DNA of 64,000 nucleotides from Candidatus Latescibacterota bacterium (GTDB taxonomy: Bacteria; Latescibacterota; UBA2968), in NCBI GenBank assembly GCA_965208125.1, contig OZ242320.1:2048001-2112000 (forward strand). Direction: 5' to 3'. The notes under the pieces are model-generated. The model did no database searches, was not told where the DNA came from, and saw nothing but the letters and a program-made list of their open reading frames with translations. Numbering within the stretch: position 1 is the stretch's first letter; each line of letters starts with the position of its first letter. This document shows, piece by piece, positions 353 to 46,650 of this stretch. The position numbers and the translations under genes were made by a program.

Positions 353-378
353 GGGTGACCACAGGGGGTCGCCCCTAC
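353..378 (-). repeat. GTAG-type REP element (copy 2)
   Basis: Minus strand GTAGGGGCGACCCCCTGTGGTCACCC; its GTAG contains the TAG stop of the permease. Confidence 0.7.
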
Positions 379-2783
379 TCATACCGCAGGGCGTCAACGG
401 GATTGGATCGCGCGGCGCGGATGGCTTGCAGGCTTATGGTACACAGGGCGATGACGACGGCTAACAGGCTACACAGAAGATATATTTTTATGCCGGGTTC
501 AATGCGATACGCAAAGCCGTTGAGCCATTGAGCCATTGCCCAGTAGGCCGCGGGCAAGGCGATGAGATTGGCGATGGTGAGGAGGAGTACAAATTCTCGT
601 GACAACAGTGCAATAATCCCGCTTACCGATGCGCCCAATACTTTGCGGATACCAATTTCTTTGGTGCGCTGCGAAACAGATAGGGATGAGAGGCCGAATA
701 AACCCAGACACGCGATTAAAATTCCAAATCCCGATGCGTACCAGACGATCTGGAGCCAGCGCTGTTCTCTACGGTATTGCTGGTTGACCTGTTGGTCCAG
801 GAATGTAAATGCAAATGGGCGCGCAGGTTCTATTTTTTTCCAGGTTTCTCGCAGCAATTCAATACTGCCGTTCACATCTTCTGGACGAATACGCACGAGT
901 ATCACGCTGGGACCACCATCTGGCGATGTGTGAAATACGATTGGGTCGATTTCGTTGTGGAGCGATTCGAAGTGAAAATTTTTCACCACGCCAACCACCT
1001 GGTGCGGCTCTGTTTTGTTCAGGACGGGAAAGGGTTGTCCAATTGGATCTTCCCATTCAAAGATGTCTGCGAGTGTTTCATTGACAATTACGGCGCGGTT
1101 GGGGTCGCTGGGAAATTCTGGGGAAAAGTTTCGCCCCATTTTCAGATTGATGTCCAGTGTTTTCAGATAGGCTTCGTCAATCCACATGGACCAGATCCTG
1201 AGCAATGTGCCATCGGGCAAGAGGTGGCCTCTCAGTTTTGTGCTGTTGATAAATGAATAGCCACCGCCGGCAATATTTACGATGTGGTCGCGGTCGCGCA
1301 AGGCTTCGCGCAGGCGCTGGAGGTTTTCCCGCGTGGCGTTGCGCAAGACGACGACCTGTTCGCTGGTATATCCCAGATTTTTTGTCTGCAAATAATCCAG
1401 TTGCTGCGCCATGATGCCCGTGCAGATCATCAATACGATTGACAAGGCATATTGCACGATGACGAGGGCGCGTGTGAAGGGTTTGCGCCGTTTTGTCCGG
1501 GTGTTGCCCTTGAATACAGATATGGGTTGTAATTTTGACAGTATTAGTGCTGGATAGCTGCCTGCGGCGAGTCCGACAAATACGAGTACACCTGTTAGCG
1601 CGACGATCAATTCCCAACTGGGGATGAGTGTCACTTCTCCGGCAATCATGTCGTTGAATACCGGTAAGAATAATCTGGCAAGTATCGATCCCAGGATCAG
1701 GGCGAGCAAGCTCATGAGCAGGGTTTCACCCCAGAATTGTTGCATGACGTTGCCGCGATGTGCGCCCAATACTTTGCGCATGCCCACTTCCAGTGACCGC
1801 CGCGCCGAGTATCCGAGGGACAGGGTTGTGAAATTGATGCACGCGATCAGCAGGACTGCTATGCCAATGGCTGATAGGACATAGGCGAACATAGGGCTGA
1901 TGGTTTGTTCGTATCCTCCGGTTACTTCGTTTTGAAAATGAATTTTTACAAGGGGCTGTAATTGGAATTGAAATGCATCGGCGCGATCTTGAATGCGTCC
2001 CCACTTGATCCAGTTACTTCGCTGTCTGGTCAGTCGCTCGGTGGTAAATGTGGCGAGTTTTTCGTTTAATGCTGTCGCCTGATTCGCGTCGTGGATTTGA
2101 ACATAAGTCGATACGCGCGCGCCCCACGCATTCGACATTTGAAAATGCCATTTGTTATCTCGATATGCACTCTCAAAGGGTATGAGTATGTCATTTCCAC
2201 GCATGCTCGAGGTCAGTGGCAATGCTTTCATAATGCCTGTGACGACATACTCCCGCGGTTCTCGAATGCCCTTGATACGCAGGGGCTGGCCGATCACACG
2301 GGCGTAATTTTCTGTTTCATCAAAGTATTTTCTCGCCACGCGCTCGCTGATGACCACGCTGTGCAAATCGTCAGTTACATCTCCGGCTAATAGCGGATAG
2401 GTGAATATTTGCAGATATGCGGGATCTATTAGTGCAATGCGTTCCCCAAATCGCTTATCCCCACGCTCGATAATCACATTTGAATTGGCAAATCGCGTTG
2501 TATGAGCGATTTCTGGGAATGCGTCTTTCAAGGCGGCTGCGAGATCCTCTGGCTGTCTTGCTGTCAATACAATTTCGCCTTCTCTGGTGATTTCCCGCGC
2601 CAATACCCGAAAGATCACCTCTCTGTTTTTGTGAAACCGATCAAAAGACCATTGTTGATGAACTGCCGAAAAAATGAGCACGCAGCATGCCATCCCTATC
2701 GCGAGTCCCAGGATGTTGATTGATGCGTATAATTTGTTCCGCATCAAATTGCGCAGGGCGATTTTGAGATAGTTTGTAAGCAT
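375..2783 (-). CDS. MacB/FtsX-family ABC transporter permease (P1)
   Basis: 802 aa; N-terminal YLKIALRNL..INILGLAIG, two EVG/EIG-x-RKVLGA motifs, C-terminal NPVDALRYE, two large periplasmic domains. Confidence 0.95.
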   Translation of the reverse strand: MLTNYLKIALRNLMRNKLYASINILGLAIGMACCVLIFSAVHQQWSFDRFHKNREVIFRVLAREITREGEIVLTARQPEDLAAALKDAFPEIAHTTRFANSNVIIERGDKRFGERIALIDPAYLQIFTYPLLAGDVTDDLHSVVISERVARKYFDETENYARVIGQPLRIKGIREPREYVVTGIMKALPLTSSMRGNDILIPFESAYRDNKWHFQMSNAWGARVSTYVQIHDANQATALNEKLATFTTERLTRQRSNWIKWGRIQDRADAFQFQLQPLVKIHFQNEVTGGYEQTISPMFAYVLSAIGIAVLLIACINFTTLSLGYSARRSLEVGMRKVLGAHRGNVMQQFWGETLLMSLLALILGSILARLFLPVFNDMIAGEVTLIPSWELIVALTGVLVFVGLAAGSYPALILSKLQPISVFKGNTRTKRRKPFTRALVIVQYALSIVLMICTGIMAQQLDYLQTKNLGYTSEQVVVLRNATRENLQRLREALRDRDHIVNIAGGGYSFINSTKLRGHLLPDGTLLRIWSMWIDEAYLKTLDINLKMGRNFSPEFPSDPNRAVIVNETLADIFEWEDPIGQPFPVLNKTEPHQVVGVVKNFHFESLHNEIDPIVFHTSPDGGPSVILVRIRPEDVNGSIELLRETWKKIEPARPFAFTFLDQQVNQQYRREQRWLQIVWYASGFGILIACLGLFGLSSLSVSQRTKEIGIRKVLGASVSGIIALLSREFVLLLTIANLIALPAAYWAMAQWLNGFAYRIEPGIKIYLLCSLLAVVIALCTISLQAIRAARSNPVDALRYE

Positions 2784-2795
2784 GCGGTTTTTCCG

Positions 2796-3473
2796 CTATC
2801 CCCTGATGTTTTCTGTGACGACATGACCGTCGAACAGGTGGATGATGCGATGCGCGTATCCCGCGTCGTGCGAGTTGTGGGTCACCATGACGATTGTGGT
2901 GCCGTTTTTGTTCAGTTCGGTCAACAGGTCCATGACCTCGTTGCCGTTTGCCGAGTCGAGATTACCCGTTGGCTCGTCTGCGAGGATGATGTTGGGGTTT
3001 GCTATGACGGCTCTGGCTACGGCCACGCGCTGCTGCTGACCGCCGGATAATTGCTGCGGGAAATGCTTTTCGCGGTGTTTGATGCCCATGTATTCGAGGG
3101 ATTCATCCAGGCGCTGTTTGCGCTCGCTGGCTGGTAAGCCCAGATATAGCAGGGGCAGTTCCACGTTTTCGGCGACGGTCAGTTCGTCGATAAGGTTGAA
3201 GCTTTGAAATACAAAGCCGATGTTTGACTTGCGGGTGTTGGCTCTTTGCCGTTCGGAGTGTTTGGAGACTTCTTCTTCGTTCAGAAAGTATTCTCCGCCG
3301 CTCGGGTTGTCCAGCAGACCGAGTACGTTCAAGAGTGTGGATTTGCCGCATCCCGATGGTCCCATTACGGCGACGAATTCGCCTTCGTCAATGTCTATAT
3401 TGACATTGTTCAGGGCAGTTGTTTCCACTTCTTCTGTGGTATAGACTTTCTCAAGGTTGACGGTTTTGATCAT
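2796..3473 (-). CDS. ABC transporter ATP-binding protein (MacB/LolD type)
   Basis: Walker A GPSGCGKS, LSGGQQQR signature, ILADEPTGNLD Walker B, VTH switch. Confidence 0.97.
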   Translation of the reverse strand: MIKTVNLEKVYTTEEVETTALNNVNIDIDEGEFVAVMGPSGCGKSTLLNVLGLLDNPSGGEYFLNEEEVSKHSERQRANTRKSNIGFVFQSFNLIDELTVAENVELPLLYLGLPASERKQRLDESLEYMGIKHREKHFPQQLSGGQQQRVAVARAVIANPNIILADEPTGNLDSANGNEVMDLLTELNKNGTTIVMVTHNSHDAGYAHRIIHLFDGHVVTENIRG

Positions 3474-3504
3474 TGTGAGACTCCTTTTGTAAAAAGCGAT
3501 TGGT

Positions 3505-4863
3505 TTACCGCTTTAATACTAATTTGTCGATTTCTTCGTAATTGTCATAAGACGATGTGACCACGCGCTCGCCGGTAGAGAGGCCGGCGAGGACTTCGAA
3601 GTATTCGGGGCTTTGGCGGCCTATGCGCACTTCGCGGCGTATGGCTTCGTCGCCTTCGACGACAAATACCCAGTTGCCGCCTGTTGTTTGATAAAATCCA
3701 CCGCGGGGAAGCAACAGGGCTTCTTCGGGTGCGTCGAGTTCCAATCGTATCTGTTCTGTTTGACCGCGCCGAATGCTTTGCGGTGTCGCATCCACAAAAT
3801 CCATATCGACTTCAAATTGTCCTTCTAAGACTTCGGGAAAGACCCGACGGATGGTTAGTTCATAAGTTTCATCGTCGATTTCAATGGTGCCTTTGAGTCC
3901 CTTTGTGATTCTGGTGATGTAAAATTCATCGATGCCCACCCGCATTTTATAAGCGTCGAGTACATCGACCTGACCAATGCGCCTTCCCCTGTTCATCAAC
4001 TGACCGATTTCTGCATTTAATTGGGACAATTGGCCGGCAATGGGCGCGCGTACGGTCAGGTTTTCCAATGGGCGGCGCACATGCTCCAATTGCCGTTGCA
4101 GGCTCCTGGCGCTCGTGTCCAGTGCAGCGAGTTGGTTGATGCGATACAGCGAGTCCTGGCGTACTGTTTCCAGTGCAAATGACCTGCGTTTTTGATCGTT
4201 TTGATATCGATCTCGCGCACTTTCAAACAGGTCTTGGGAAGTCAATCCGCGTTCGAACAAAACTTTCTGCTTTTCGTATTGGCGTTCTGTCTCCCGCAAG
4301 TTCAATTCAACGCGCATCAGTTCCTGGCGGTTGCGAATGGCCCGATTTTCCAGATTCAACCGGGTGTTTTCCATGTTGTTGATTTGTTCAAATAAACGGG
4401 CTTCCTGGGTTAAAATATTTTGTTCCAGGGTGGGATTTGACAATTTCAAAATGGGTATGCCTTTTTCGACCATTGTTCCTTCTTCGAGAAAGATTTCCTC
4501 TATTTGTCCGCCTTCCAGTGCGTCGATATAATAGGTTTGTATCGGCAATACAGTGCCGCGCTGGACGGTAAATTCCTGAAAGGGACCGCGCGTGACTTCT
4601 GAGATGGTAATCCGATCGACCTGTACATTGAGCCGGGCGCTGTGGTCGCCAAAGACCGCCATGTAGATCACGGCACACACAAATACGGCGATCCCGCTTA
4701 TGCTGGCGATGCGCTTTGGCGTCCATACTTTTTTTTCGACTCTGCGGTCCATGCCGTCCTGGCTCGTGGCGTCTGTTGACGGTTCGGGCGAGGAAGAACC
4801 CCTGCCTACAAAGCTGGGTACGGCTTTCTTTTTAGGCCCATCATCTCGTTCGGGTGTTGACAC
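3505..4863 (-). CDS. Periplasmic adaptor / membrane fusion protein (HlyD/MacA-like)
   Basis: N-terminal TM anchor, lipoyl half-motifs (EGG..EEG, VRAPIAG), long coiled coil, C-terminal EVLAGL..GERVV. Confidence 0.9.
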   Translation of the reverse strand: MSTPERDDGPKKKAVPSFVGRGSSSPEPSTDATSQDGMDRRVEKKVWTPKRIASISGIAVFVCAVIYMAVFGDHSARLNVQVDRITISEVTRGPFQEFTVQRGTVLPIQTYYIDALEGGQIEEIFLEEGTMVEKGIPILKLSNPTLEQNILTQEARLFEQINNMENTRLNLENRAIRNRQELMRVELNLRETERQYEKQKVLFERGLTSQDLFESARDRYQNDQKRRSFALETVRQDSLYRINQLAALDTSARSLQRQLEHVRRPLENLTVRAPIAGQLSQLNAEIGQLMNRGRRIGQVDVLDAYKMRVGIDEFYITRITKGLKGTIEIDDETYELTIRRVFPEVLEGQFEVDMDFVDATPQSIRRGQTEQIRLELDAPEEALLLPRGGFYQTTGGNWVFVVEGDEAIRREVRIGRQSPEYFEVLAGLSTGERVVTSSYDNYEEIDKLVLKR

Positions 4864-4963: not shown

Positions 4964-7393
4964 TCACTCATATCGCAAGGCGTCAATTGGATTGGATCGT
5001 GCGGCGCGAACAGCCTGCATGCTCACGGTGCCAAAGGCGATGATCAATGCCATTATCGCACTTGCAGCAAATGGTAAGACATTTAAATCTGTCTGATAGG
5101 CAAATCCAGAGAGCCAGTCGCGCATGAGATAGTAGGCAACTGGCCAGGCGATGAGATTGGCAAGCAGTATGAGCACTATAAATTCGCGGGAGAGCAGCAT
5201 GACCAGATGTGGTGTGGATGCGCCCAGTACTTTTCGCACGCCAATTTCTTTGGTGCGAGACTGAACCATGAATGCGGCCAGTCCAAACAGTCCCAAACAC
5301 GCTACAAAAATTGCGAGCAATGAAAACACGCCGAGCATTTTGCCAGTGAGTTGTTCGTTGAAATAGTACCACTGTATGATCTCATCTAAAAAGTGATGTT
5401 CAAAGGGGACCTCTGGCATAAAGTGTTTCCACTGCGTTTCGAGAAAGGACAGGGTTTGCGCGGTGTTTTCTGGTCGGATGCGCAGGGCCAGTGAAACAAA
5501 CAGTCTCCATTTGCCTATAAAACCCATGGGGGCTATTTCTTCTCGTAGCGTCAAGCTGTGGTAGTCTTTTACGACGCCAATTACTGTCAGGGATCGGTTT
5601 TCATATGCTGGCAACAGAATTTGCTTGCCAATCGGGTCATCCTCCCAGCCGAGCAGGCGCACGGCTGTTTCGTTCAAAATAATCGCTTGAGAGGTATCGC
5701 TGGCAACATCGGCTGAAAAGGCACGACCGCGGAGCACGGGAATATCAAATGTTTCAAAAAATGAATCATCGACTTCGTTTATGTTAATTGTCCGTTCTTT
5801 TGTGCGGTCTCTATCGGGCCAGATCCGTCGCGGTCGTCCGCCGTATCCCGATATGTCGTATCGCAGTGCTGATGCGCTGAGGATATTGGGGTGTTCGAGA
5901 AAGACCTGTTTGACCATCTGGTGGCGTGCTGAAAGGCGCATTTGTGGGTCGAATTCATGCTGACGGTCGTGAGCAAAGATGGGTAAACTCACAATGTGGT
6001 CGCGTGCAAAACCCATGTCTTTGGTTTCTATAAATCGCAGTTGTTGATAAACCACGAGGGTGCAGATCACCAGCAAGATAGACATGCCAAATTGAAATAC
6101 TAAGAGTCCTTTTTTCAGCCCTGTGGAACCGGAGGAGGAAGACGTACTGCTTTTTAATGCGTTCACCGGGCGAAAAGAGGAGAGGAAAAACGCCGGATAC
6201 CATCCCGCCAGCAGCCCGACCACCAATGTTAGTGCCAGTACTGCCGGCGCACCTATTATTACTGTAGCCGCGTTGAGGTGTAAATCGCCGCGCACAAATT
6301 GGTTGAATAAGGGCAGGGATAACTCGACCAGTGCAAGGGCAATCAGCAGGGCGGAACAGGTTAAAAGCAGGGATTCGCTCAAGAACTGGACCATTAATTG
6401 CGGGCGATGCGCGCCAACGACTTTTCGCACACCTACTTCGCGTTTGCGGGTGACAGCGCGAGCCGTTGCCAGGTTTGTAAAGTTCACGCAGGCAATGACC
6501 ACTACGATCAGTCCAATAGCTGCCAGCATGTAAATTTGTTGCATGGGGCTGCTGGCAGCCGGGTTAAAGTCGGATTCACCATGCAAGTACACGCGGTGCA
6601 GGGGCTGTAGATGATAGGTGTTTTTTGCCGCAACGTCATCCCCCATATATTGCACGATCAGCGACTGCATTTTTGCCTGGAGGGTTTCTGCGTTTTGTCC
6701 CGCTTTTAATAGCACATAGGTTTTTACTGGACGCCACGATTGCCTGGGTAGCCACATCATCCACGGCTCTTGTGTTTTTCCTACGGAGGGTATTGTGGTT
6801 GTGAGCAAATGAAATTGAAGGTCTGATAAAAGGTGTGGTGCCTTTACGATGCCAGTAACTGTGTACTCGCCTGGAAAATTGCGATTATCGACGGAAACTG
6901 TTTTGCCCATTGGATCGATATCGCCAAATAGGTGTTGCGCCATGTCGTCGGTAATGACCGCAGAGTAGGGCAGGCGAAACGCGGTTTCTGGGTCGCCTTT
7001 TATGAAGGGGAAATCAAATACGTCCAGAAAGTTGTCATCTACCAGTGCCAGGGTATATAGATTCTTGTGGTCGCCATATTGTGCAGATACGCCCCACCGC
7101 CAGATACGCACGGTTGTTTCTACTTCGGGAAATGTTTCTTTTAACACGGGACCGAGTGCGCCTGATGTCCCTTCTGCGTATGTTGTTTGCGTTGTACCGC
7201 GTTCTTCCCGAACTACTTTGTAAATGCGGTCGCCCAGGGTGTGCGAGCGATCTATTGCAAACTCCTGCTGGGTGTACAACAGGATTAAGATGCCACACGC
7301 CAGTCCGATGGCCAGTCCCAATACATTGATGGCTGTGTACAATTTGTGCCGCATCAAATTGCGGATCGCGACGGTTAGATAATTTTTGATCAT
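4964..7393 (-). CDS. MacB/FtsX-family ABC permease (P2, subfamily A)
   Basis: 809 aa; same motifs as P1; close paralog of 24046..26475 and 35233..37737. Confidence 0.95.
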   Translation of the reverse strand: MIKNYLTVAIRNLMRHKLYTAINVLGLAIGLACGILILLYTQQEFAIDRSHTLGDRIYKVVREERGTTQTTYAEGTSGALGPVLKETFPEVETTVRIWRWGVSAQYGDHKNLYTLALVDDNFLDVFDFPFIKGDPETAFRLPYSAVITDDMAQHLFGDIDPMGKTVSVDNRNFPGEYTVTGIVKAPHLLSDLQFHLLTTTIPSVGKTQEPWMMWLPRQSWRPVKTYVLLKAGQNAETLQAKMQSLIVQYMGDDVAAKNTYHLQPLHRVYLHGESDFNPAASSPMQQIYMLAAIGLIVVVIACVNFTNLATARAVTRKREVGVRKVVGAHRPQLMVQFLSESLLLTCSALLIALALVELSLPLFNQFVRGDLHLNAATVIIGAPAVLALTLVVGLLAGWYPAFFLSSFRPVNALKSSTSSSSGSTGLKKGLLVFQFGMSILLVICTLVVYQQLRFIETKDMGFARDHIVSLPIFAHDRQHEFDPQMRLSARHQMVKQVFLEHPNILSASALRYDISGYGGRPRRIWPDRDRTKERTININEVDDSFFETFDIPVLRGRAFSADVASDTSQAIILNETAVRLLGWEDDPIGKQILLPAYENRSLTVIGVVKDYHSLTLREEIAPMGFIGKWRLFVSLALRIRPENTAQTLSFLETQWKHFMPEVPFEHHFLDEIIQWYYFNEQLTGKMLGVFSLLAIFVACLGLFGLAAFMVQSRTKEIGVRKVLGASTPHLVMLLSREFIVLILLANLIAWPVAYYLMRDWLSGFAYQTDLNVLPFAASAIMALIIAFGTVSMQAVRAARSNPIDALRYE

Positions 7394-7478: not shown

Positions 7479-7495
7479 AGCAATTACTGTGCCAA
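7479..7495 (-). promoter_or_regulatory. sigma54 -24/-12 promoter (copy 1)
   Basis: Minus strand TTGGCACAGTAATTGCT matches TGGCAC-N5-TTGCW, upstream of P2. Confidence 0.88.
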
Positions 7496-7557
7496 AGGAA
7501 TCTTCTCTATGTTTTACAAGTAGTTATGAAAATTTAGGCCATGAACGCGGTTCAAGA

Positions 7558-7598
7558 AGTGTCCGATTTTGATACAGTAGTGTCCGAAAATGAACACT
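7558..7598. promoter_or_regulatory. Putative sigma54 activator enhancer (copy 1)
   Basis: AGTGTCCGATTTTGATACAGTAGTGTCCGAAAATGAACACT = TGT-N11-ACA + TGT-N10-ACA; conserved in five copies. Confidence 0.8.
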
Positions 7599-8120: not shown

Positions 8121-10607
8121 TCACTCCGTCCGCAAGGCATCTACTGGATTTGTCCGTGCGGCTTTGAGGGCTTGATAGGTCATGGTTGCAAGTGCAAGTA
8201 AGAGCGCGAGAATACCGCCTATGAGAAAATACATAAGGTGAAGGTCGATGCGATAGGCGAAGTCCTGCAACCATCTGCTCCCAAACAGATAGGCTATTGG
8301 ACTGGCGATTATACAGGCGATGATTACGAGTTTGACAAATTCTCTGGATAACAAACCAAAAATACTGAATACCGATGCGCCCAGGACTTTTCGTATGCCA
8401 ATTTCTTTTGTTTTTTGTTCTGCTCGAAACGATATCAGGCCGAGTAGTCCCAGGCATGCTACGAAGATTGTCAGTCCGGAAAACACGGTTAGTGCATTCC
8501 CCGTGCGGATTTCATTTTCATAACGCACGCGTGTCAGGTCATCATTTAAGAAATGATAGGTGAACGGAATTTGAGGCAAAAACTCATGCCATGTTTTTTC
8601 TATAAAAGCGAGCGTTTCAGGTATGTTCTGTGTGCCCAGTTTGAGGTAGAGAGTTTTGCCCGCTCCCGTACGCGTTTTGAATGTGACGGGTCGAATGGTA
8701 TTGTGCAAGGTCTGAACGTGAAAATCTTTCATCACGCCTACCACATACCCCTCAGGTCCATTTTTTTCCTTAAAACGTCTGCCAATCGGTTCGTCCCATC
8801 CAAGCTGTTGTACGGCTGTTTCATTCAAAATATAAGGCTGGCCTTTTTTTACATATTCGTGCACTTTTTTTTCATATTCTTGCCACTCCGCAAGACTTGT
8901 TACTTTTTCTGGTGGTTTTGGTAGTTCTGGTACCAGACGGCCTGCTGCGAGTTCGATGTTGAAGAAGTCCAGATAATCTTTATCGATATCAAACACGCCC
9001 ATCTGCCAATCGGCATCGCTGCCTTCAGCTCGAAACGTGTCGGTTGTGATGTACCCGCCTTGAGGGAAACGCGTGGCTGTTGCTTTCAGAATATTCGGGT
9101 GTGCCGTGAACGCCTGTTTTACCGTGGGAATGCGCCGTCTCAGATCCTCGGGTCCACCGTGATGTAGTTGTCGAGAATAGATGAAAATCGGTATGCCGAC
9201 CACGAGTTCTTTATCAAATCCGAGGTCTTTGTTTCGGATATACGCCAGTTGCTCTTGTACGACAACAGTGCCTGTGATGAAAGCTATTGAAATTGCAAAT
9301 TGAAAGACCACGAGTGCTTTTCTCAGCCCAACGTGTTTCGATCCGGGTATCCAATCTCCTTTCATTACCTGCGTGGGCAAGAAGGATGAGAGTACAAATG
9401 CGGGATAACTTCCCGCGAGTACACCAACGCTCACGCCAAATCCGATCAATCCGATCAGCCACCACAGATTTTCAGTTCTGTGCAATATCAAATCTCGTTG
9501 AATAAAACTGTTAAACCACGGCAGGATCAGTTCGACTAAGGCGAGTGCTACGATCATTGCAGCGAGTGCTACCAGTACTGATTCGCCCAAAAATTGTCCG
9601 ATCAATTGCTGGCGAGATGCGCCTACCACTTTTCGCAATCCCACCTCACGTGCTCTGGTGGATGAACGCGCCGTTGAGAGATTCATAAAATTGACACAGG
9701 CGAGTACGAGAATAAAACCCGCCACGAGTCCAAAGGCATACACCTGCTTGATATCGCCATATCCCGTAAACTGACGCCCCAAATCCCAATGGCCATAAAG
9801 ATGCACGCGCGTGAGGGGTTGCAAGATGTACCGGGTCGTTTGGCGGACTTCATTTCCCATGTATCGCGTTATCAAATCGGGTAGTTTTTGCTGTAGTGCG
9901 CGGTGGTCGTAGCCTTCGGGCAACAGGAGATATGTGAAAAAGGGACGGTAAGCACCCGTGGGCTGCCATATAGACCACATGTCCGCCAACGCCCCCCTTG
10001 GCGTGGCGGTCAGGCAATCGAAATAAAAGGTCGAGTTGGGTGGAAAGTCGCGCACAATACCCGTCACAAAGTATGTTACAGTGCCGCTCAGTTCCTGGTG
10101 ATCTACTTGTAGTGTTTTTCCCATCGGATTCTGGTTCTGAAAGAATTTGCGGGCCATGGATTCTGTTAGCACTATTGAACCCGGCTGGGTCAACGCCGTG
10201 CCTGCATCACCGGTTACAAATGGGATTGTAAATACATTGAAAATTTCTCGATCTGCGACACATACGTCTTGCTGAAAAAAGCGGTCATCGGTTTTAACCC
10301 ATGAGGTGAGTCGCTGTGTGCGGATGGCTTCCTGTACTTCGGGAAAATCGCGCTTTAGTGCCGGTGCCAGTGCGCCAGATGCACGCGGACTGACCGATGT
10401 GGTGTTTTCCATTGAAACTGTGCGGAAGACGCGATAGATGTGGGTTGCATTAACATGATAGCGGTCGTAGCTAAATTCATATTGAATGTAGAGGGCGATT
10501 AAAATGACACACGTCATCCCGATTGCCAGACCCAGGATATTAATCGCTGTCAAGCCTCTGCTTTTTAGCAAGGTGCGAAGAGTAGCTATGAGATAACTGT
10601 GCAACAT
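8121..10607 (-). CDS. MacB/FtsX-family ABC permease (P3, subfamily B)
   Basis: 828 aa; family motifs; close paralog of 12946..15426. Confidence 0.95.
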   Translation of the reverse strand: MLHSYLIATLRTLLKSRGLTAINILGLAIGMTCVILIALYIQYEFSYDRYHVNATHIYRVFRTVSMENTTSVSPRASGALAPALKRDFPEVQEAIRTQRLTSWVKTDDRFFQQDVCVADREIFNVFTIPFVTGDAGTALTQPGSIVLTESMARKFFQNQNPMGKTLQVDHQELSGTVTYFVTGIVRDFPPNSTFYFDCLTATPRGALADMWSIWQPTGAYRPFFTYLLLPEGYDHRALQQKLPDLITRYMGNEVRQTTRYILQPLTRVHLYGHWDLGRQFTGYGDIKQVYAFGLVAGFILVLACVNFMNLSTARSSTRAREVGLRKVVGASRQQLIGQFLGESVLVALAAMIVALALVELILPWFNSFIQRDLILHRTENLWWLIGLIGFGVSVGVLAGSYPAFVLSSFLPTQVMKGDWIPGSKHVGLRKALVVFQFAISIAFITGTVVVQEQLAYIRNKDLGFDKELVVGIPIFIYSRQLHHGGPEDLRRRIPTVKQAFTAHPNILKATATRFPQGGYITTDTFRAEGSDADWQMGVFDIDKDYLDFFNIELAAGRLVPELPKPPEKVTSLAEWQEYEKKVHEYVKKGQPYILNETAVQQLGWDEPIGRRFKEKNGPEGYVVGVMKDFHVQTLHNTIRPVTFKTRTGAGKTLYLKLGTQNIPETLAFIEKTWHEFLPQIPFTYHFLNDDLTRVRYENEIRTGNALTVFSGLTIFVACLGLLGLISFRAEQKTKEIGIRKVLGASVFSIFGLLSREFVKLVIIACIIASPIAYLFGSRWLQDFAYRIDLHLMYFLIGGILALLLALATMTYQALKAARTNPVDALRTE

Positions 10608-15448: not shown

Positions 15449-15754
15449 CTATTCATCTCTCAAAGCATCCGCCGGGTTTGCGCGGGCTACTTTGAGGGTC
15501 TGGGCGGTGATGGTTGTGAGTACGACGAGGAACATGGCTATGCTGCCGAGTAAGAATATACCAATACCCAATTCGGTGCGGTAGGCGAAGGTTTGTAACC
15601 ATTGATTGGTCGCGTAATAGGCGATGGGGAATGCGATGGCGATGGCGAGGCCAATGATGTTGATGGCCGAGTAGATGCGGTGCCTGGCGAGGTTGCGGAT
15701 TGCTGTTTTCAGGTAGCTATAAAATAAAGACATTCCAGCATGTGCTCTGAACAT
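15449..15754 (-). pseudogene. Internally deleted in-frame mini-permease (subfamily C), 101 aa
   Basis: N-terminus (YLKTAIRNLARHRIYSAINIIGLAI) joined directly to C-terminus (IAFPIAYYATNQWLQ..NPADALRDE) of P6/P11; ATG at 15754 with AGGAG. Confidence 0.85.
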
Positions 15755-15821
15755 TTTAGTTTCTCCTGTGCAGGGATAGGACTTGCACCATACAGGTAAC
15801 GTGAATCTATAAAAAATAGCA

Positions 15822-15838
15822 AGCAATTCCCGTGCCAA
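15822..15838 (-). promoter_or_regulatory. sigma54 -24/-12 promoter (copy 2)
   Basis: Minus strand TTGGCACGGGAATTGCT. Confidence 0.88.
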
Positions 15839-15899
15839 AATATTCTTCTCTATGTTTTACAAGTAGTTATGAAATTTGTGCCATGAGTGCCGTTCAATA

Positions 15900-15940
15900 A
15901 GTGTCCGTTTTTGATACAGTAGTGTCCGAAAATGAACACT
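15900..15940. promoter_or_regulatory. Putative sigma54 activator enhancer (copy 2)
   Basis: One mismatch to copy 1. Confidence 0.8.
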
Positions 15941-15982: not shown

Positions 15983-16357
15983 ATGAATTACAACAGATTA
16001 AACCTAAAAGAAACCATATGGATCGGGGATTCTAAGACCAAGTTGAAGGAATTTCCGGAGTCCGTTCAAAAGGATATAGGTGACGCTCTATTTATTGCAC
16101 AAGCGGGAAGCATGTCTCCGGCAGCGAAACCATTCAAGGGTGTAGGTTCAGGAGTTTTTGAGATACGGGCGGATTATAGAACGGATACTTACCGCGCCGT
16201 GTATGCGGTAAAGATTGGAGAGAGGGTTTATATACTGCATTGTTTTCAAAAAAAATCAAGGCGTGGAATTAAAACTTCCAAGAGGGATGTAGTCCTTATC
16301 AAGAGACGTTTGAGATTGGCACTGGAATTGGAGGCGATTTATGAGCAAGAAAATTAA
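15983..16357 (+). CDS. RelE/ParE-superfamily (HigB/Gp49-like) toxin
   Basis: W.GDS..L..FP, GVGSGVFEIR, TYRAVY, LHCFQKKS motifs; toxin-first order. Confidence 0.9.
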   Translation: MNYNRLNLKETIWIGDSKTKLKEFPESVQKDIGDALFIAQAGSMSPAAKPFKGVGSGVFEIRADYRTDTYRAVYAVKIGERVYILHCFQKKSRRGIKTSKRDVVLIKRRLRLALELEAIYEQEN

Positions 16358-19184: not shown

Positions 19185-19191
19185 GTTGTGC

Positions 19192-37823: not shown

Positions 37824-37840
37824 AGCAATTTTTGTGCCAG
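37824..37840 (-). promoter_or_regulatory. sigma54 -24/-12 promoter (copy 4)
   Basis: Minus strand CTGGCACAAAAATTGCT. Confidence 0.88.
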
Positions 37841-37902
37841 AATATTCTTTTCTATGTTTTACAAGGGGTTATGAAAATTTGAGTCATGAACGCCGTTTAA
37901 GA

Positions 37903-37943
37903 AGTGTCCGATTTTGATACAGTGGTGTCCGAAAATGAACACT
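37903..37943. promoter_or_regulatory. Putative sigma54 activator enhancer (copy 4)
   Basis: One mismatch to copy 1. Confidence 0.8.
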
Positions 37944-38000: not shown

Positions 38001-38375
38001 TTGAGGGAAGGTACAATTTTGAATGAACAAATAAAAAGTGTAATATGGGTCGGGGATTCTCGTGAGCAAGTTCGAAGCTTTCCCAAAGCTGCGAGAGGAA
38101 CAGTGGGTGAAGCGTTGCGTTTCGCGCAATGGGGCGGTAAACACCCAAAGTCAAAACCGCTACGATCAGTGGGTTCTGGCGTATTGGAGATTGTCGTTCC
38201 TTACGATACAAATACCTATCGCGCTGTTTATACCGTCAAGATCGGCGAGAAAATCTATGTGCTTCATGCGTTCCAGAAGAAATCCACCCGTGGCATTAAA
38301 ACACCTAAGCAGGCAATTGACCTGATTAAATTGCGGCTGAAAATAGCGAAAAATATGGAGGTCCAAAATGAATGA
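38001..38375 (+). CDS. RelE/ParE-superfamily (HigB/Gp49-like) toxin
   Basis: WVGDS, GSGVLEI, TYRAVY, LHAFQKKS; paralog of 15983..16357; start uncertain. Confidence 0.88.
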   Translation: MREGTILNEQIKSVIWVGDSREQVRSFPKAARGTVGEALRFAQWGGKHPKSKPLRSVGSGVLEIVVPYDTNTYRAVYTVKIGEKIYVLHAFQKKSTRGIKTPKQAIDLIKLRLKIAKNMEVQNE

Positions 38376-38697
38376 AAAGGTCAAATTTGAGCAAAGCTCT
38401 GGAAATGTATTTCGAGACATCGGTTTCTCAGAATCAGAGGCTGAACGTGAGTTGCTGAAGGCAGATCTGGCATTTGAAATCTATAGTATTCTTGAAGAGC
38501 GAAAACTGACGCAGACAAAAGCGGGAGAAATTCTTGGGATCAATCAGTCCGATGTGTCCCGGCTAAAGAACGGCGATTTTAGCCGTTTTAGTGTAGAGAG
38601 ACTATTTGGGTTTCTGAATCGGCTGAACCGCAATATTGAGATTCGCATTACGCATTCGGAAGATAGAGGCGGTCATCAGCGAGTCGTTGCGGTTTAG
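38368..38697 (+). CDS. XRE-HTH antitoxin (HigA-like)
   Basis: SSGNVFRD, LTQTKAGEILGINQSDVSRL; paralog of 16341..16664. Confidence 0.9.
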   Translation: MNEKVKFEQSSGNVFRDIGFSESEAERELLKADLAFEIYSILEERKLTQTKAGEILGINQSDVSRLKNGDFSRFSVERLFGFLNRLNRNIEIRITHSEDRGGHQRVVAV

Positions 38698-38707: not shown

Positions 38708-41086
38708 TCACTCATCTTTCAACGCATCCACAGGATTGCGGCGCGCAGCTTTCAGTGTTTGAAAATTCACCGTCAACAGCGCGACTATAAGGGTCAGTAT
38801 CCCGGCGATGCCAAAAACGCCTATGCCCAGTTCAATGCGATATGCGAAATTGGTCAGCCATTGAGTCATCATCCAGTAGGCAACAGGATAGGCGATGATA
38901 TTGGCGACCAGTAGCAACTTGATAAAATCTCTGGAAAACAACCACATCACATGATGGACAGAAGCCCCCAGTACCTTCCGTATCCCAATCTCCTTTGTCC
39001 GCCGCGCAACTGCGAGTGACGCCAGCCCGAACAATCCCAAACACGAGAGCAGGACAGCCCCCAGTGCCGAGTGGCTCAATAAGCGAAACCAATAGACTTC
39101 ATTGGCATACTGTTGATTCAGATTTTCATCCAAAAACGAGAGTTCAAAGGGTCTATCAGGCGCGACCTTTTCCCATGTGCTTTTGAGCATGTCAATCGTT
39201 TCAAAAATTGGGCCTGAACGCATGCGAATTAGCAGAAATGGGCCATAGTTGTATTTTTCCATCATCAATGCCAATGGCTCGATCCGGTTGTGCAAAGATT
39301 TTATGTGAAAATCGCGCACCAAACCAATAACAATGGGATCTCTAAAGCCGCCATCCCTTCTAAAGCCCGTCAGTGTTTCTCCCACCGGGTTCTCAACGCC
39401 CAATTTCTTCGCCAGTGTTTCGTTGATCAATACAGCTTTAGTTAGATCTGTGGGATGGTCTTCCGAAAAATTGCGACCAGCAAGAAGTGGTATCTCTAAA
39501 GTGGATAGATAATCGACATCTACGCCAATCACCTTTACCGTAACCATCGAGCCGTCAGGAAACTTGAAACGTGTCGAAGAATAACCATCGATAAGTGTGC
39601 GGTCCGTAATTGTAACACCCGCAATGCGTTGGTCGTTTACAATGGCCTGCTTATAGGATTTGGCTGTCCGCCAATTTGCTTGAATAATGGCGACTTGCTC
39701 TTTGTTAAAGCCCAGGTTTTTGTTCCGCACATAATTCTGCTGTTGAAGCATCACTCCTGTGCCAATGATGAGGGCTATAGACGCCGCGTATTGCAAAATG
39801 ATTAGCGTGCGCGTCAAAAGGTTGCGCCCACCAAGGCGTGTTTCGCCTTTTATGGCTAAAACAGGTTGAAATCGCGATAAGACCAGAGCGGGATAACTGC
39901 CAGCGATTAGTCCGACAATGCTGAGCATGAGCAGCAAGACCCACCAATCGTCAAAATACGCGAGGGTCAATTTTTGATGTACAAATCCATTGAATACGGG
40001 CAACAGGATTTCGGCAAGTGCAGTACCCACGAGCAAGCCCAAAAAGCACAACACCAGTGCTTCGCTCCAAAACTGTTGAATAATCTGACTGCGATTGGCG
40101 CCTACTACTTTGCGCAATCCCACTTCTTTTGCTCGTCCGGAAGACTCTGCGATGGATAGGGTAATAAAGTTGCTGCACGCAATGAGAAAGACCAGCCATG
40201 CAAGCCCCCACAAGATATAAACCCCTGTTGGATTGCCTTGCGGTCCGTAGTGATTGGGAATGTCTGTATTCCAGTACACATCCGTCAGGGGCTGGAGAAT
40301 AAAGTTAAATGGTTTGTTGTCGAATATCTCCTCCCTCAACTTTTCTTTTTTTGTCCAGTGGTTGAGATCGTCAAGTACGCGAGAAGCATTTGTTTCACCT
40401 ATTTGTATAAAGATCCACGCACTTGCATCGTTGTAACGTCTTGCAAGTCCAAAGCCCTTTTCGGCTTTTATCGAAACCAACACGTCGAATTGAAGACTTG
40501 ATGTTGTAGGCATATCTGCCATAACACCTGTCACGATAAATAGCTTATTTTTTACGCTCAATGCTTGCCCTATCAGTGTGTTATAATCCTGTATATCTCC
40601 AAAAAACTTGCGTGCTGTTGTTTCGGTAATCACTATCCCATCTGGTTGAGCGAGTGCTGTTGTAGGATCACCTGACAAAAAAGGAAATGTGAACATTGCA
40701 AAGAAATCACCACTCACAAACCCCATGGCTGACCGAAAAGATTTTTCTCCCCTTGCGATTTTACTTCTCGTGTGCCGCATAAATGCACAGGTTTGCTCAA
40801 CACCTATAATTTCATCTTGCAACTCATCGACAACCAAAAGCGGATATACCGTATCCCAGATATTAAATGGGATTGCCTTGCCGTCTGGTTGAAGTCTTTG
40901 CGCTACCAACCGAAATGTCTGGTCGTGGTTTTCGTGAAACCGATCGCGTGACCATTCGTGTTTGACAAACAAAGCCATCAAGATACAGCAGGCAAGCCCC
41001 AGGCCGAGGCCGAACACATTGATGAATGTGTAGAGCTTCTTTCGCATCAAATTGCGGATCGCAACGGTTAGATAATTTTTGATCAT
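38708..41086 (-). CDS. MacB/FtsX-family ABC permease (P10)
   Basis: 792 aa; family motifs; first 15 codons shared with subfamily A. Confidence 0.95.
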   Translation of the reverse strand: MIKNYLTVAIRNLMRKKLYTFINVFGLGLGLACCILMALFVKHEWSRDRFHENHDQTFRLVAQRLQPDGKAIPFNIWDTVYPLLVVDELQDEIIGVEQTCAFMRHTRSKIARGEKSFRSAMGFVSGDFFAMFTFPFLSGDPTTALAQPDGIVITETTARKFFGDIQDYNTLIGQALSVKNKLFIVTGVMADMPTTSSLQFDVLVSIKAEKGFGLARRYNDASAWIFIQIGETNASRVLDDLNHWTKKEKLREEIFDNKPFNFILQPLTDVYWNTDIPNHYGPQGNPTGVYILWGLAWLVFLIACSNFITLSIAESSGRAKEVGLRKVVGANRSQIIQQFWSEALVLCFLGLLVGTALAEILLPVFNGFVHQKLTLAYFDDWWVLLLMLSIVGLIAGSYPALVLSRFQPVLAIKGETRLGGRNLLTRTLIILQYAASIALIIGTGVMLQQQNYVRNKNLGFNKEQVAIIQANWRTAKSYKQAIVNDQRIAGVTITDRTLIDGYSSTRFKFPDGSMVTVKVIGVDVDYLSTLEIPLLAGRNFSEDHPTDLTKAVLINETLAKKLGVENPVGETLTGFRRDGGFRDPIVIGLVRDFHIKSLHNRIEPLALMMEKYNYGPFLLIRMRSGPIFETIDMLKSTWEKVAPDRPFELSFLDENLNQQYANEVYWFRLLSHSALGAVLLSCLGLFGLASLAVARRTKEIGIRKVLGASVHHVMWLFSRDFIKLLLVANIIAYPVAYWMMTQWLTNFAYRIELGIGVFGIAGILTLIVALLTVNFQTLKAARRNPVDALKDE

Positions 41087-43546: not shown

Positions 43547-44128
43547 TCAGCTCGCCCAGCCTCCGACCTCTTGTTTTTCCAGCGCGCGTTTTAGTTGGTG
43601 ACGCCCGCGGTGGAGCCAGATTTTCACGGATCCGAGGGGTGCTTGCATTTCCCATACGATTTCGCGGTAGGACAGTTCTTTTATGTAGCGAAGCCACATT
43701 GCGCGTTGTTGTACTTTAGGCAGTGTGCGCAAGCCCTGTGTTAAGAGTTGATGGCGTTCTTTTTGTATGACGCTGTCTTCTGGCGTTGTCAGAGTGATTG
43801 GTTCGGGCATGTGTCGCGCTGCTGTTTCCATGCCGTTTTTTCGGGATAGCCGGGACCGAAGGTGTGACCGCCCGACGTTGATGGCAATGCGCGTCAGATA
43901 GGTTGTGAATGCCGATTCACCGCGAAAATGGCGCAGGCTCTGGAAGACTTTCATGAATACCACCTGCATCAGGTCTTCGGTTTCCTCGCGGTCCTGCACA
44001 TATCGCCCGACAATGGCGCGCACGCGATTCTGGTGCAGATGGTAGAGTTTGCCAAACGCGCTTTTGTCACCGGCTTTGATCATGTGGATCAATTGCACAT
44101 CGTTTTCTATGTCCGATCGTTTATTCAT
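43547..44128 (-). CDS. ECF sigma-70 family factor
   Basis: GDKSAFGKLY, EDLMQVVF, FRGESAFTTYLTRIAIN (region 2), LSYREI..GSVKIWLHRGR (region 4). Confidence 0.9.
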   Translation of the reverse strand: MNKRSDIENDVQLIHMIKAGDKSAFGKLYHLHQNRVRAIVGRYVQDREETEDLMQVVFMKVFQSLRHFRGESAFTTYLTRIAINVGRSHLRSRLSRKNGMETAARHMPEPITLTTPEDSVIQKERHQLLTQGLRTLPKVQQRAMWLRYIKELSYREIVWEMQAPLGSVKIWLHRGRHQLKRALEKQEVGGWAS

Positions 44129-46484
44129 ATCGCAATGCCTCCACGGGATTCATTTTTGCCGCTTTCACGGCTTGCAGGCTCACTGTTCCGATTACGACCA
44201 GGAGTGTCAGTACACCGCCCAGCGCGAATGCCCCGATGCCCAGTTCAATTCGATACGCGAAGTCCGATAGCCATTTGCTCATTGTCCAATAGGCGACTGG
44301 CCAGGCAAGTACGTTTGCTATGCCTACCAGCAGTACGAATTCGCGCGATAGTAAACGCACTACGTTTGTGACGCTGGCACCCAATATTTTGCGAATGCCG
44401 ATTTCTTTGGTGCGCCGGGTCACGGCGAGTGCTGTCAATCCAAATGCGCCCAGGCACGCGATAAAAATGGCAAACAGGGTTCCGTATCCGATCATGCGAT
44501 GCCAGCGCTCTTCGGTTCGGTATTGGCGGTCGATGCCTTCATCGAGAAATGAATAGCGGAATTCCGGGGATTGTGTTACGGCTTCCCATTGCGCTTTCAT
44601 GAATGTCAGTGTGCCGGGGATGTCTTCGGCACGCACCCGGACCAGCAGGTGGCTAAATTTATTTTTCGGGTTGCATTTCAGGAGTGCGGGACCAATTTTG
44701 TGGTGGAGAGAGCGAAAATGGAAATCGTTTACTACGCCGATTACTGTCATATCATCGAAGAATTTCAGTGTTTTTCCGAGGGATGGTCCCGGTCCCAGTT
44801 GTTTGGCCAGGGTTTGGTTGATGATTACAGACGCGGTGGGGTCTGTCACGAGTTCTCGTGCATAATTTCGGCCTTCGATCAATTTGATGTCGAGGGTTGG
44901 TACAAAGTCGTAATCGACAAAGAAGATCTCCACGCCTTTTAAGGTTGTTCCTTCATGTACCACAGCCCCGCGCGACTGGTATCCATTGCGCATCATGTGA
45001 TATATGGGGGTCACACCGAGAATTGCGTGATGGGATAACAGGGCGTCCCGATAGGTTTCAATGCCTTTTGGGCTCAGGTCTCGCAGCTTGCTGAGGCGGC
45101 TTACGGCAATCAGGTGTTCGCTGTCAAATCCCAGGGGTTTGGTTCGCAAATAGTCGAGTTGAGAGGTCATAATGAGGGCACTGATGACCAGGACCGCAGA
45201 CATCGCGATCTGGAAGACCACGAGAAACTGGCTGAAAAGTCCCGCGCTGACAATTTTCAATCTGCCTTTGAGTACGTGGATTGGCATAAAGCCGGATAGG
45301 ACAAAGGCTGGATAGGTACCTGCGAGCAGGCCGACAATTAGAGTTAGACCCATTAGCGAGGCAAATGCCAGGCTATCCAGATGTGCAATCAGGGATAGTT
45401 TTTGCGCCATGAGGTTGTTGAACAATGGCATTAAAAGTTCTGATAGTGCGAGTCCGATTACAAATGCTATGAGGCTTAAGAGTACGGATTCTGTGAGGAA
45501 TTGCACGATGACCTGGGGCTTGTGTGCGCCAACGACTTTGCGGATGCCGATTTCCCGCGCTCGAGAGGCTGACCGTCCCTGTGCGAGGGTCATAAAGTTC
45601 ACGCAGGCGACAAAGAGGACCAGGGCTGTGATGCACAACAGGATGTAGCTGTATGCCGGGTCAGTGGCGGGTTCAGGCGCGCGGATATTTGGATTGAAAT
45701 GCACATCGGCAAGGGGCTGCAATTTCAGTTCCTGGTTTTCCCCCGTGATGGGCCACGACCAGTTTATAAAACGCGGAAGTAATTTTTCTATGTCTTCGGA
45801 GCGAGCCTGATTGTGGAGCAAGACGTAAGTACTGGTGTTGCCTGTGTAATTCCACGAGTTGAGCGCGTCTTCGACATTCTCATAGGACTGGATGCAGCCG
45901 AACTGAATGCTGGATGTTTCGGGGGTGTCTTTCGCTATGCCGGTAATCAGAGCTTGATGGATTTTTGAGTTTCGGGTGAAAGAGAACGATTTCCCCATTG
46001 GGTCGGTGTTGCCGAAAAATTTTTGGGCGACGGTTTCCGATATGATCATGGCATCTTTGCTATTCAGTGCTGTTGCGGGGTCGCCTTTTATCAGGGGAAA
46101 TGAAAAGACGTCCCAGAAACCTGGATCGACGTAAATAACGCGCTCTTGAGATGAATGGTCGCCATATTGGAATGTGCGAGAAGTGGCATAGATTCTGACG
46201 ACGTGTTGCATTTTTGTGGGGAATGCTTCTGTCAATGCCGGACCGAGGGGTCCCGGCATAGCAGCCGAGGCATCGCTGCCTTCTCCCACTTCTCCTCTAT
46301 TGTAAACGCGATAAATCCGATCTGCTTTTTCGTGGAATGCGTCAAAGGACCATTCGTGTCGCACATACAGGAATGTCAAGATGCAAAACGCAATGCCGAT
46401 TGCCAGGCCGGTGATGTTGATCGCGGAATACACTTTGTAACGCACGAGGTTGCGATACGCTACGATCAGATAGTTGCGGAGCAT
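44121..46484 (-). CDS. MacB/FtsX-family ABC permease (P12)
   Basis: 787 aa; family motifs. Confidence 0.95.
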   Translation of the reverse strand: MLRNYLIVAYRNLVRYKVYSAINITGLAIGIAFCILTFLYVRHEWSFDAFHEKADRIYRVYNRGEVGEGSDASAAMPGPLGPALTEAFPTKMQHVVRIYATSRTFQYGDHSSQERVIYVDPGFWDVFSFPLIKGDPATALNSKDAMIISETVAQKFFGNTDPMGKSFSFTRNSKIHQALITGIAKDTPETSSIQFGCIQSYENVEDALNSWNYTGNTSTYVLLHNQARSEDIEKLLPRFINWSWPITGENQELKLQPLADVHFNPNIRAPEPATDPAYSYILLCITALVLFVACVNFMTLAQGRSASRAREIGIRKVVGAHKPQVIVQFLTESVLLSLIAFVIGLALSELLMPLFNNLMAQKLSLIAHLDSLAFASLMGLTLIVGLLAGTYPAFVLSGFMPIHVLKGRLKIVSAGLFSQFLVVFQIAMSAVLVISALIMTSQLDYLRTKPLGFDSEHLIAVSRLSKLRDLSPKGIETYRDALLSHHAILGVTPIYHMMRNGYQSRGAVVHEGTTLKGVEIFFVDYDFVPTLDIKLIEGRNYARELVTDPTASVIINQTLAKQLGPGPSLGKTLKFFDDMTVIGVVNDFHFRSLHHKIGPALLKCNPKNKFSHLLVRVRAEDIPGTLTFMKAQWEAVTQSPEFRYSFLDEGIDRQYRTEERWHRMIGYGTLFAIFIACLGAFGLTALAVTRRTKEIGIRKILGASVTNVVRLLSREFVLLVGIANVLAWPVAYWTMSKWLSDFAYRIELGIGAFALGGVLTLLVVIGTVSLQAVKAAKMNPVEALRYE

Positions 46485-46531
46485 TTTATTCTCCTTAGAT
46501 GTCGTCGCGTGTTCTTTGTGCCCATTTTATA

Positions 46532-46548
46532 TGCAATAATCGTGCCAA
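46532..46548 (-). promoter_or_regulatory. sigma54 -24/-12 promoter (copy 5)
   Basis: Minus strand TTGGCACGATTATTGCA. Confidence 0.9.
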
Positions 46549-46609
46549 AAGATACAAGTTTTGAAATAACAGTAATTTATGAAAATTGCTTGAAATTAGC
46601 AGTTTAGAA

Positions 46610-46650
46610 AGTGTCCGATTTTGATACAGTAGTGTCCGAAAATGAACACT
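46610..46650. promoter_or_regulatory. Putative sigma54 activator enhancer (copy 5)
   Basis: Identical to copy 1 although the spacer sequence has diverged. Confidence 0.82.

Follow-up and report, generated by a model that had tools for sequence, protein, structure and literature searches.

A sigma54-associated array of duplicated MacB-type permeases and its variation among relatives in Candidatus Latescibacterota

The permease array and its sigma54 cassettes

The DNA analysed here (the window) comprises 64,000 nucleotides of contig OZ242320.1, positions 2,048,001 to 2,112,000, from the Candidatus Latescibacterota bacterium assembly GCA_965208125.1, and it carries a long array of genes for ATP-binding cassette (ABC) transporter permeases. 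The analysed genome is labelled G000 and its relatives carry other G-numbers; coordinates are those of the window unless marked G000 or L. An initial annotation had described 12 full-length, co-oriented permeases and a mini-permease in five units, each starting with a common sigma54/enhancer cassette, and this description holds. The minus strand contains twelve open reading frames (ORFs) of 785-834 aa in which MacB_PCD and FtsX domains score above the Pfam cut-offs (12/12), and five dyads with five sigma54 elements at constant spacing head units of the composition described. The locus extends past the left edge of the window, where a second ATPase of the same family is followed by two more permeases, giving an array of 14 permeases in total.

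All genes of the five units lie on the minus strand, and the permeases (P1 to P12) were identified by Pfam. Unit 5 starts with cassette 5 (46532..46649; enhancer 46611-46649, sigma54 element 46532-46547) and continues with P12 (type F, 44121..46484), an extracytoplasmic function (ECF) sigma factor (43547..44128), P11 (type A, 80% identical to P6, 41137..43494) and P10 (type I with a type-B-like 5' leader, 38708..41086). In unit 4, cassette 4 (37824..37942; enhancer 37904-37942, sigma54 element 37824-37839) precedes P9 (type B with a 25-aa insertion, 35233..37737), P8 (type H, 32758..35172), which is the most divergent permease with 26-30% identity to the others, and P7 (type D, 30364..32739). 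The first gene behind cassette 3 (29396..29514; enhancer 29476-29514, sigma54 element 29396-29411) is replaced by a 0.5-kb stretch carrying an antisense antitoxin-like ORF, and unit 3 then comprises P6 (type A, 26499..28892) and P5 (type B, 24046..26475). Unit 2 has cassette 2 (15822..15939; enhancer 15901-15939, sigma54 element 15822-15837), the mini-permease (15449..15838), P4 (type C, 87% identical to P3, 12946..15426), a GWxTD/tetratricopeptide repeat (TPR) protein above the cut-off of TIGR04514 (10633..12942) and P3 (type C, 8121..10607). The mini-permease is a 129-codon remnant of a type A gene with an in-frame internal deletion that joins transmembrane (TM) helix 1 to TM7-8 and removes both coupling helices; from the matching ATG it would measure approximately 101 aa. 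Unit 1, finally, consists of cassette 1 (7479..7597; enhancer dyad of 39 bp at 7559-7597, sigma54 element 7479-7494), P2 (type B, 4964..7393), a periplasmic adaptor of the HlyD family resembling MacA and DarC (3505..4863), a MacB/LolD-type ABC ATPase with intact Walker A/B, signature and H-loop motifs (2796..3473) and P1 (type E, 375..2783).

The 39-bp dyad is present five times in the window (starting at 7559, 15901, 29476, 37904 and 46611) and was absent from 100 shuffles. The promoter motif TGGCAC-N5-TTGCW is likewise present five times, compared with a shuffle mean of 0.10 and a largest value of 2, and each of these sigma54 elements lies 63-64 nt downstream of a dyad. Between dyad and promoter, at a fixed place, there is an AT-rich element resembling the consensus of an IHF site. 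In the whole of G000 the enhancer was found 13 times with scores of 46-70 bits, where the reversed genome gave a maximum of 17, and in 11 of the 13 cases the sigma54 element follows 63-64 nt downstream. These 13 enhancers head 11 permeases, one lone ATPase and one pair of GWxTD/TPR genes. Judged from sequence, the -24/-12 element, the upstream dyad, the presence of rpoN in G000 and an enhancer-binding protein in the genome (see below) together indicate sigma54-dependent promoters.

Some further observations concern the same signals. In L007:1637-7032 an enhancer with a more distant sigma54 element heads two GWxTD/TPR genes, and many further TPR or GWxTD-like paralogs are found elsewhere in G000. 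A hairpin followed by a T run lies directly upstream of cassettes 1 and 3 (7604-7641 and 29514-29551), in opposite orientations, and these are possibly terminators that insulate the units. Scans of positions 1-20000 for sigma-70 promoters and for terminators gave no excess over shuffles (30 vs 28.7 and 25 vs 22.4, respectively).

A candidate activator is encoded at G000 1858623-1860155, approximately 190 kb from the array and beside another permease. It is of the NtrC type and has a kinase gene as its neighbour. Among 19 more distant loci that were examined, 13 carry orthologs of both genes divergent from the adaptor gene (two from Latescibacterota, four from Cloacimonadota and seven from the Bacteroidota side, including Salinibacter and Fodinibius), and dyads related to the enhancer were found in several intergenic regions of such activator-adaptor loci, though not in all. 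In 4/4 sister-genus arrays with an activator gene, enhancer and sigma54 element come directly after this gene, the enhancer being 215-302 nt away from where the activator match starts. The kinase contains two hydrophobic helices with a linker of a few residues, and 13/13 orthologs lack any hydrophobic window beyond residue 60; the protein is thus predicted to be a two-TM histidine kinase without an extracytoplasmic sensor domain, as in the Bce modules discussed below.

Permeases, ATPases and adaptor

G000 consists of one 5.75-Mb contig without any N and encodes 37 full-length permeases of the double-FtsX kind: 14 in the array, 8 in a second cluster and 15 scattered. The 23 permeases outside the array are all at least 18 kb from any MacB-type ATPase. 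Ten types are represented among the 14 array permeases, with identities of 26-47% between types and 80-88% within. The periplasmic core, the FtsX TM domain and the coupling helix place these proteins, as far as their sequences tell, among the type VII (MacB-family) ABC transporters. The AlphaFold model of P2 (pLDDT 83.8, pTM 0.74, from a 36-sequence alignment) has 8 TM helices, a number also given by hydropathy, and two periplasmic domains; its best fold matches are YbbAP (E 3.8e-19), followed by MacB and a permease domain from Porphyromonas gingivalis, and BceAB is also among the matches. Two side observations concern the permeases outside the window. The second cluster (L003/L004, G000 2511411-2545860) contains 8 duplicated permeases and 3 enhancer cassettes but no ATPase or adaptor, and the permease P0 has a 96%-identical second copy approximately 1.9 Mb away (L015:5522-7900, plus strand), representing the most recent duplication in G000.

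The initial annotation had assigned a single ATPase to the whole repertoire. This is correct inside the window, but the genome has three ATPases of the family, the second one just past the left edge: besides the window copy these are G000 2047259-2047960 (52% identical) and G000 440526-441200 (50%), and all three keep the catalytic motifs. Six further MacB/LolD-type ATPases (38-47%) are encoded in G000, at least three of them beside permeases of their own, so that at most nine ATPases could serve the 37 permeases. The more general claim of many permeases per ATPase and adaptor is therefore borne out, with 37 permeases to three family ATPases and one close adaptor. The third ATPase (L005:4526-5378) stands alone with its own enhancer and sigma54 element and is followed by an ankyrin-repeat gene.

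Among 36 of the 37 permeases the two coupling regions show mean identities of 63% and 59%, compared with 31% for both periplasmic domains, and the coupling-helix motif is present in 36/36 aligned permeases. This agrees with the predicted conserved docking surface and variable periplasmic domains, and such a pattern would be expected for a shared ATPase docking on heads that vary. A pseudo-symmetric permease chain is known to bind two ATPase molecules via two coupling helices (PMC12646458), and where two permeases are fused, the ATPase is always encoded by a gene of its own (PMC5985334).

The adaptor scores above the cut-off for RND_mfp and is the sole close copy in G000, the next match having 22% identity. 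It is present in 35 of 40 relatives and is single-copy in 34 of these 35, the remaining genome having a second partial match at a contig end. With respect to a TolC-type duct, G000 has six OEP genes, none within the array, and a TolC-type gene was found in 4/4 Bacteroidota loci whose candidate ORF was tested. A 465-495-aa gene in the first unit of some relatives was considered as a TolC candidate and rejected, since the one copy tested was thioredoxin-like. As a separate observation, the first gene of the G008 array (L076:3716-5140, plus strand) encodes a 474-aa protein with a C-terminal thioredoxin-like domain; proteins with similar N-termini are encoded at the same position in G006, G015 and G020, and are absent there in G000.

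A conserved 85-aa ORF of no known family (69..326, minus strand) is located directly upstream of the second ATPase gene, which itself sits outside the window. None of its 73 aligned members matches a Pfam family at E < 0.003, and no family was obtained from NCBIfam or Atlas either. It is found in 17 of 20 other congeneric genomes and has 98 matches among 50%-identity clusters, and a homolog sits behind an ATPase gene in a Bacteroidales locus. In the 15 sister-genus genomes searched neither the ORF nor a second ATPase was found. The 85-aa protein is a possible accessory subunit of the second ATPase. Between this ATPase gene and P0 there is a gene for a PhnZ-like HD-domain oxygenase (L001:16610-17206, minus strand), which is kept in most congeners.

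Variation between relatives and recombination

The enhancer is present in 20/20 congeners with 1-12 copies each, and permeases and cassettes of the same kind are found in independently assembled genomes. The size of the array varies considerably. Between the anchors we counted 14 full-length permeases in G000 and G014, 13 in G006 and G008, 11 in G004 and G020, 10 in G002, 9 in G013, 7 in G017, 6 in G019 and 4 in G009. The comparison of copy number and order called for by the initial annotation shows that close species differ: no two of the 11 arrays compared (11/11) have the same order of permease types. In the 20 kb analysed for other relatives G001 has two permeases, G016 and G010 one each and G018 none, and in G015 the array is split over two loci. 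The ends of the array are fairly stable and the middle is variable. Collinearity with G000 is broken 3.2-5.6 times per 10 kb in nine arrays, compared with 0.24-1.3 in four 100-kb background stretches from two genomes at 91-94% nucleotide identity, although the number of breaks may be overestimated where paralogs are mapped by best hit. The genomes compared are species representatives and not strains. The short arrays suggest a core of cassette, ECF sigma factor, adaptor and ATPase that has received insertions of permeases and cargo.

Could this variation reflect rapid amplification in tandem, accompanied by gene conversion and positive selection and stabilized by addiction to toxin-antitoxin (TA) genes, as the initial annotation proposed? 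The differing order and number in 11/11 arrays are in line with it, and so is recombination, which is clear within types from several signs. Recombination scars, as noted initially, are present: the deletion in the mini-permease, the 5' leader that P10 has in common with P9 and P2, and the P2/P5/P9 mosaic, in which the informative sites fall into 220 runs against 279 expected (p ~1e-4). The pairwise homoplasy index (PHI) gave z values of 3.6-24.7 for ten permease families, the larger ones represented by 12 sequences drawn at random, and 0.2-4.7 for six controls, which are shorter, so that the z values are not strictly comparable. Segment-wise distance correlations gave no clean separation (0.27-0.63 for permeases vs 0.38-0.87 for controls). 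Type B periplasmic loops are found as discrete variants in many combinations. Internal deletions are recurrent with differing breakpoints, in-frame mini-permeases being present in G000, G008 and G014.

Other findings speak against such a process. The array paralogs are not near-identical (at most 88% at the amino acid level, the longest exact tract within genes being 96 nt), and for types A and B the identical tracts found inside one genome do not exceed in length those found between genomes. No cross-type chimera was seen among 185 full-length permease genes, and the nearest neighbour was a same-genome copy in only 5 of 65 multi-copy genes, by which concerted evolution is rejected. Pooled dN/dS was 0.10-0.34 for periplasmic domains, 0.05-0.24 for TM domains and 0.06-0.22 for controls and lay within 0.03-0.34 across all domains, i.e. 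at or below 0.34 everywhere; the calculation excluded three divergent sequences (G001_1763, G016_8089 and G001_8902) as well as all members not belonging to the genus. Types A, C and I have some eight-codon windows in which pN approaches or slightly exceeds the local pS, but this is not a test of positive selection. With no cross-type chimeras, no concerted evolution and low dN/dS, an amplification driven by conversion and positive selection is not supported, and neither are the claims of gene conversion across the whole array and of diversifying selection. The data fit birth-and-death of old types with exchange among like copies, and judging from the sequences this within-type exchange probably also occurs between lineages.

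The TA genes were the remaining part of that proposal. TA-like pairs lie at 3 of the 4 internal unit boundaries, much as first described, and the boundary between units 2 and 1 has only a 103-aa ORF without assignment. Domain matches identify a HigBA-like pair (Gp49 and HTH_37) at 38001..38697 on the plus strand, a VapBC-like pair (PIN and a 98-aa ORF without family match) at 29583..30265 on the minus strand, and TA-like DUF2283, PIN and DUF2442 genes at 22535..23988 on the minus strand, and Pfam a further HigBA-like pair (Gp49/RelE-like and HTH_37) at 15983..16664 on the plus strand. In G000 the array contains 2 of 13 PIN hits, 2 of 7 Gp49, 2 of 4 DUF2442 and 2 of 10 HTH_37, and since these 8 of 34 hits fall in 0.8% of the genome the enrichment is real. 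The kind and position of TA genes differ between relatives, however, and G009 keeps TA genes with only 4 permeases, so that the view of TA modules holding the array in place is not supported. TA genes turn over like cargo, and we propose that both collect in the array because the region is a recombination hotspot. Taken together, the amplification proposal appears improbable to us.

The remaining cargo between units 3 and 2 (16670..22506) consists of a HAD hydrolase, a LytTR/LytS pair, an alpha/beta hydrolase, a histidine phosphatase, DUF2442 and a metallophosphoesterase, and cargo order varies between relatives. The arrays of G006, G008 and G014 (L072-L084) contain paired 609-619-aa fused ABC exporters and transposase-like ORFs among the permeases. 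On the other side of unit 5 a major facilitator superfamily transporter gene (46697..47860, minus strand) forms the upstream synteny anchor of the array in relatives. Next to it is a 178-aa ORF (47870-48406, minus strand) with seven copies of a 33-bp tandem repeat and homologs of 50-88% identity in relatives. A 40-nt inverted repeat is present at 48567-48606 and 58431-58470, and a similar sequence immediately precedes the activator gene; this resembles a palindromic element of the dispersed kind.

A second alternative is that the variation is mostly neutral churn, repeats inviting duplication and deletion, or that it results from collapsed strains in the assembly. Broken and internally deleted copies are indeed common, as seen from 30 short permease ORFs, some of them cut by region ends, the contamination estimate is 5.03%, and no sequencing run contains the exact strain, the best share being 0.31. 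Yet the genome is one contig without N, all 12 permeases in the window have full-length frames and are under purifying selection, exact identity does not exceed 96 nt, and the same types, blocks and cassette recur in independent assemblies. These points argue against the collapse that the initial annotation had named as a possible refutation, and we consider this explanation highly improbable. Contigs of four sequencing runs, matched to positions 1-20000 at 88% likeness, stem from relatives and cover 30, 30, 25 and 28 of 30 bins. They show joints fitting other gene orders, such as 4959 to 12944 in X15 and 7394 to 15449 in X17. With sides of only 20-61 nt, however, these joints could be yielded by paralogs, and contigs from RNA libraries were not counted as evidence of expression or co-induction.

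Known systems and the putative role of the array

The nearest described arrangement is a highly translated 42-kb cluster in Psychroflexus torquis with ten ADOP paralogs, pseudogenes and an addiction module, for which no function is known (PMC3914696). Like the present array it contains tandem duplicated FtsX/MacB permeases of approximately 800 aa together with other transporter genes; the passage on this cluster in PMC3914696 mentions no repeated sigma54 cassette, activator or between-species turnover. The permeases share with ADOP (TIGR03434) the two FtsX domains in one chain of approximately 800 aa, but 9/9 permeases tested scored 261-335 bits and the cut-off is 622.3 bits, so they are ADOP-like and not members. 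Among the best candidates (at most 18 per genome) none of 41 genomes (0/41) exceeded this cut-off. The orphan trait, so called from the family name and meaning that no ATPase is adjacent, does not apply, as ATPases and adaptor lie inside the array. In Bacteroidia, Opitutia and Gammaproteobacteria, predicted sigma54 promoters have also been reported before genes for FtsX-like COG0577 permeases and for ATPases (PMC12316311); the main text of that report names no Latescibacterota, and its relevant passages no enhancer, activator or kinase, but its supplements may list taxa or activators. In view of these two reports the system cannot be called undescribed, as had been suggested, and its basic architecture is not new. 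What is added is a 13-site regulon with a candidate activator, a sensorless kinase and a measured turnover. We found no paper on the operator, the activator-kinase pair, the Latescibacterota system, or turnover or recombination in such arrays, in a search that covered subscription journals thinly.

Among characterized transporters, MacAB-TolC resembles the present system in the MacB periplasmic core, the FtsX domain, the coupling helix and the MacA-like adaptor (PMC5985334). It differs in that its ATPase is fused to a homodimeric 4-TM permease, where we find a separate shared ATPase, an 8-TM fusion, many paralogs and no linked TolC. P2 is also like YbbAP-TesA of E. coli (PDB 9GE6/9GE7), in which a pseudo-symmetric chain with two coupling helices has two ATPase molecules bound (PMC12646458), but YbbP has 10 TM helices and a hydrolase partner, while P2 has 8 TM helices and an adaptor, with no TesA in the array. 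A separate YbbAP-TesA-like locus, judged by gene sizes and N-termini, is found in G000 near 3.744-3.747 Mb.

The darobactin exporter DarBCD (NF038007, NF038008, NF038010), which also has a duplicated permease, provides the best named matches of the ATPase (DarD) and the adaptor (DarC). This raises the question whether the array might export the cell's own peptides, lipoproteins or surface proteins with the GWxTD proteins as partners, such genes being present in unit 2 and behind a further enhancer. However, the scores stay below the Dar cut-offs (278 of 375, 194 of 450 and 65-167 of 700), no biosynthetic genes, including precursor or maturation genes in the window, were recognised, and GWxTD genes are missing from the arrays of many relatives. 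An export function of this kind therefore seems to us quite improbable.

Our preferred interpretation, which we hold with moderate confidence, is that a sigma54 regulon of type VII (MacB-family) ABC transporters with a role in envelope defence has its main locus in this array. By analogy with the family, one permease chain would dock an ATPase dimer through its two coupling helices and work by mechanotransmission, as reported for MacB (PMC5985334), and the shared adaptor together with a TolC-type duct encoded elsewhere could help to remove periplasmic or membrane-bound substrates or to pass them on, with specificity presumably set by the variable periplasmic loops. As the gene linkage suggests, the NtrC-type activator would bind the enhancer and be phosphorylated by the neighbouring kinase, which, having no periplasmic sensor domain, probably reads envelope stress or transporter activity. 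The role would most likely be an inducible defence of the envelope against a shifting range of amphipathic peptides or lipid-like compounds. Several findings weigh against this interpretation. Twelve of the 37 permeases have no cassette. The activator motif is GAFTDA and not GAFTGA, a variant listed among those that keep activity (PMC4641369). The arrays contain no TolC, and the ducts of the Bacteroidota loci match G000 proteins only weakly (best E 4e-12). G018 keeps the core without any permease at the locus, which means that the array is dispensable there. The possible inflation of the break count mentioned above concerns the turnover, and a dN/dS below 1 fits relaxed constraint on the loops as well as a change of specificity.

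The kinase opens a further alternative, in which the permeases act mainly as co-sensors or in target protection, their conformational cycling is what the kinase senses, and the whole set is under feedback by sigma54. Bce modules couple an ABC transporter to a two-component system that has no sensing domain, with positive feedback (PMC10314905), and the type VII-like transporter, the two-TM, short-loop kinase (13/13 orthologs) and possibly the positive feedback are the features in common with BceAB-RS, besides the presence of BceAB among the fold matches of P2. The differences from BceAB-RS are the diderm host, the NtrC/sigma54 output, the adaptor and the dozens of permeases in this system. BceB, with 10 TM helices and one extracellular domain (PMC10314905, PMC5985334), differs in topology from the P2 model, which has 8 TM helices and two periplasmic domains, a contact between kinase and permease is putative, and the MacA-like adaptor kept in 35 of 40 relatives together with the TolC genes in the Bacteroidota loci points to efflux. 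We regard this library of sensors as unlikely but credible. A bolder version of it, speculative and in our opinion rather unlikely, would be a diderm sigma54 counterpart of Bce in which the sensorless kinase reads dozens of interchangeable permeases sharing two to three ATPases and one adaptor. The repertoire would then be sensor and effector at once, species would retune it by swapping loop variants and whole permeases, and the 85-aa protein would be an undescribed accessory subunit of the second ATPase.

Returning to the envelope-defence regulon, its significance lies in the fact that Acidobacteriota, Bacteroidota and relatives possess large paralog families of duplicated MacB-type permeases, to which no function is assigned in the papers we found. 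The present locus offers handles on this problem in the form of an exact operator and a named candidate activator and kinase that are conserved in culturable Bacteroidota relatives. Arenibacter, Mariniphaga and Fodinibius are examples of culturable, non-pathogenic relatives whose loci carry this module. The sensorless kinase suggests Bce-like sensing, the natural loop variants point to residues that may determine specificity, and such arrays turn over between species at approximately 91-94% nucleotide identity.

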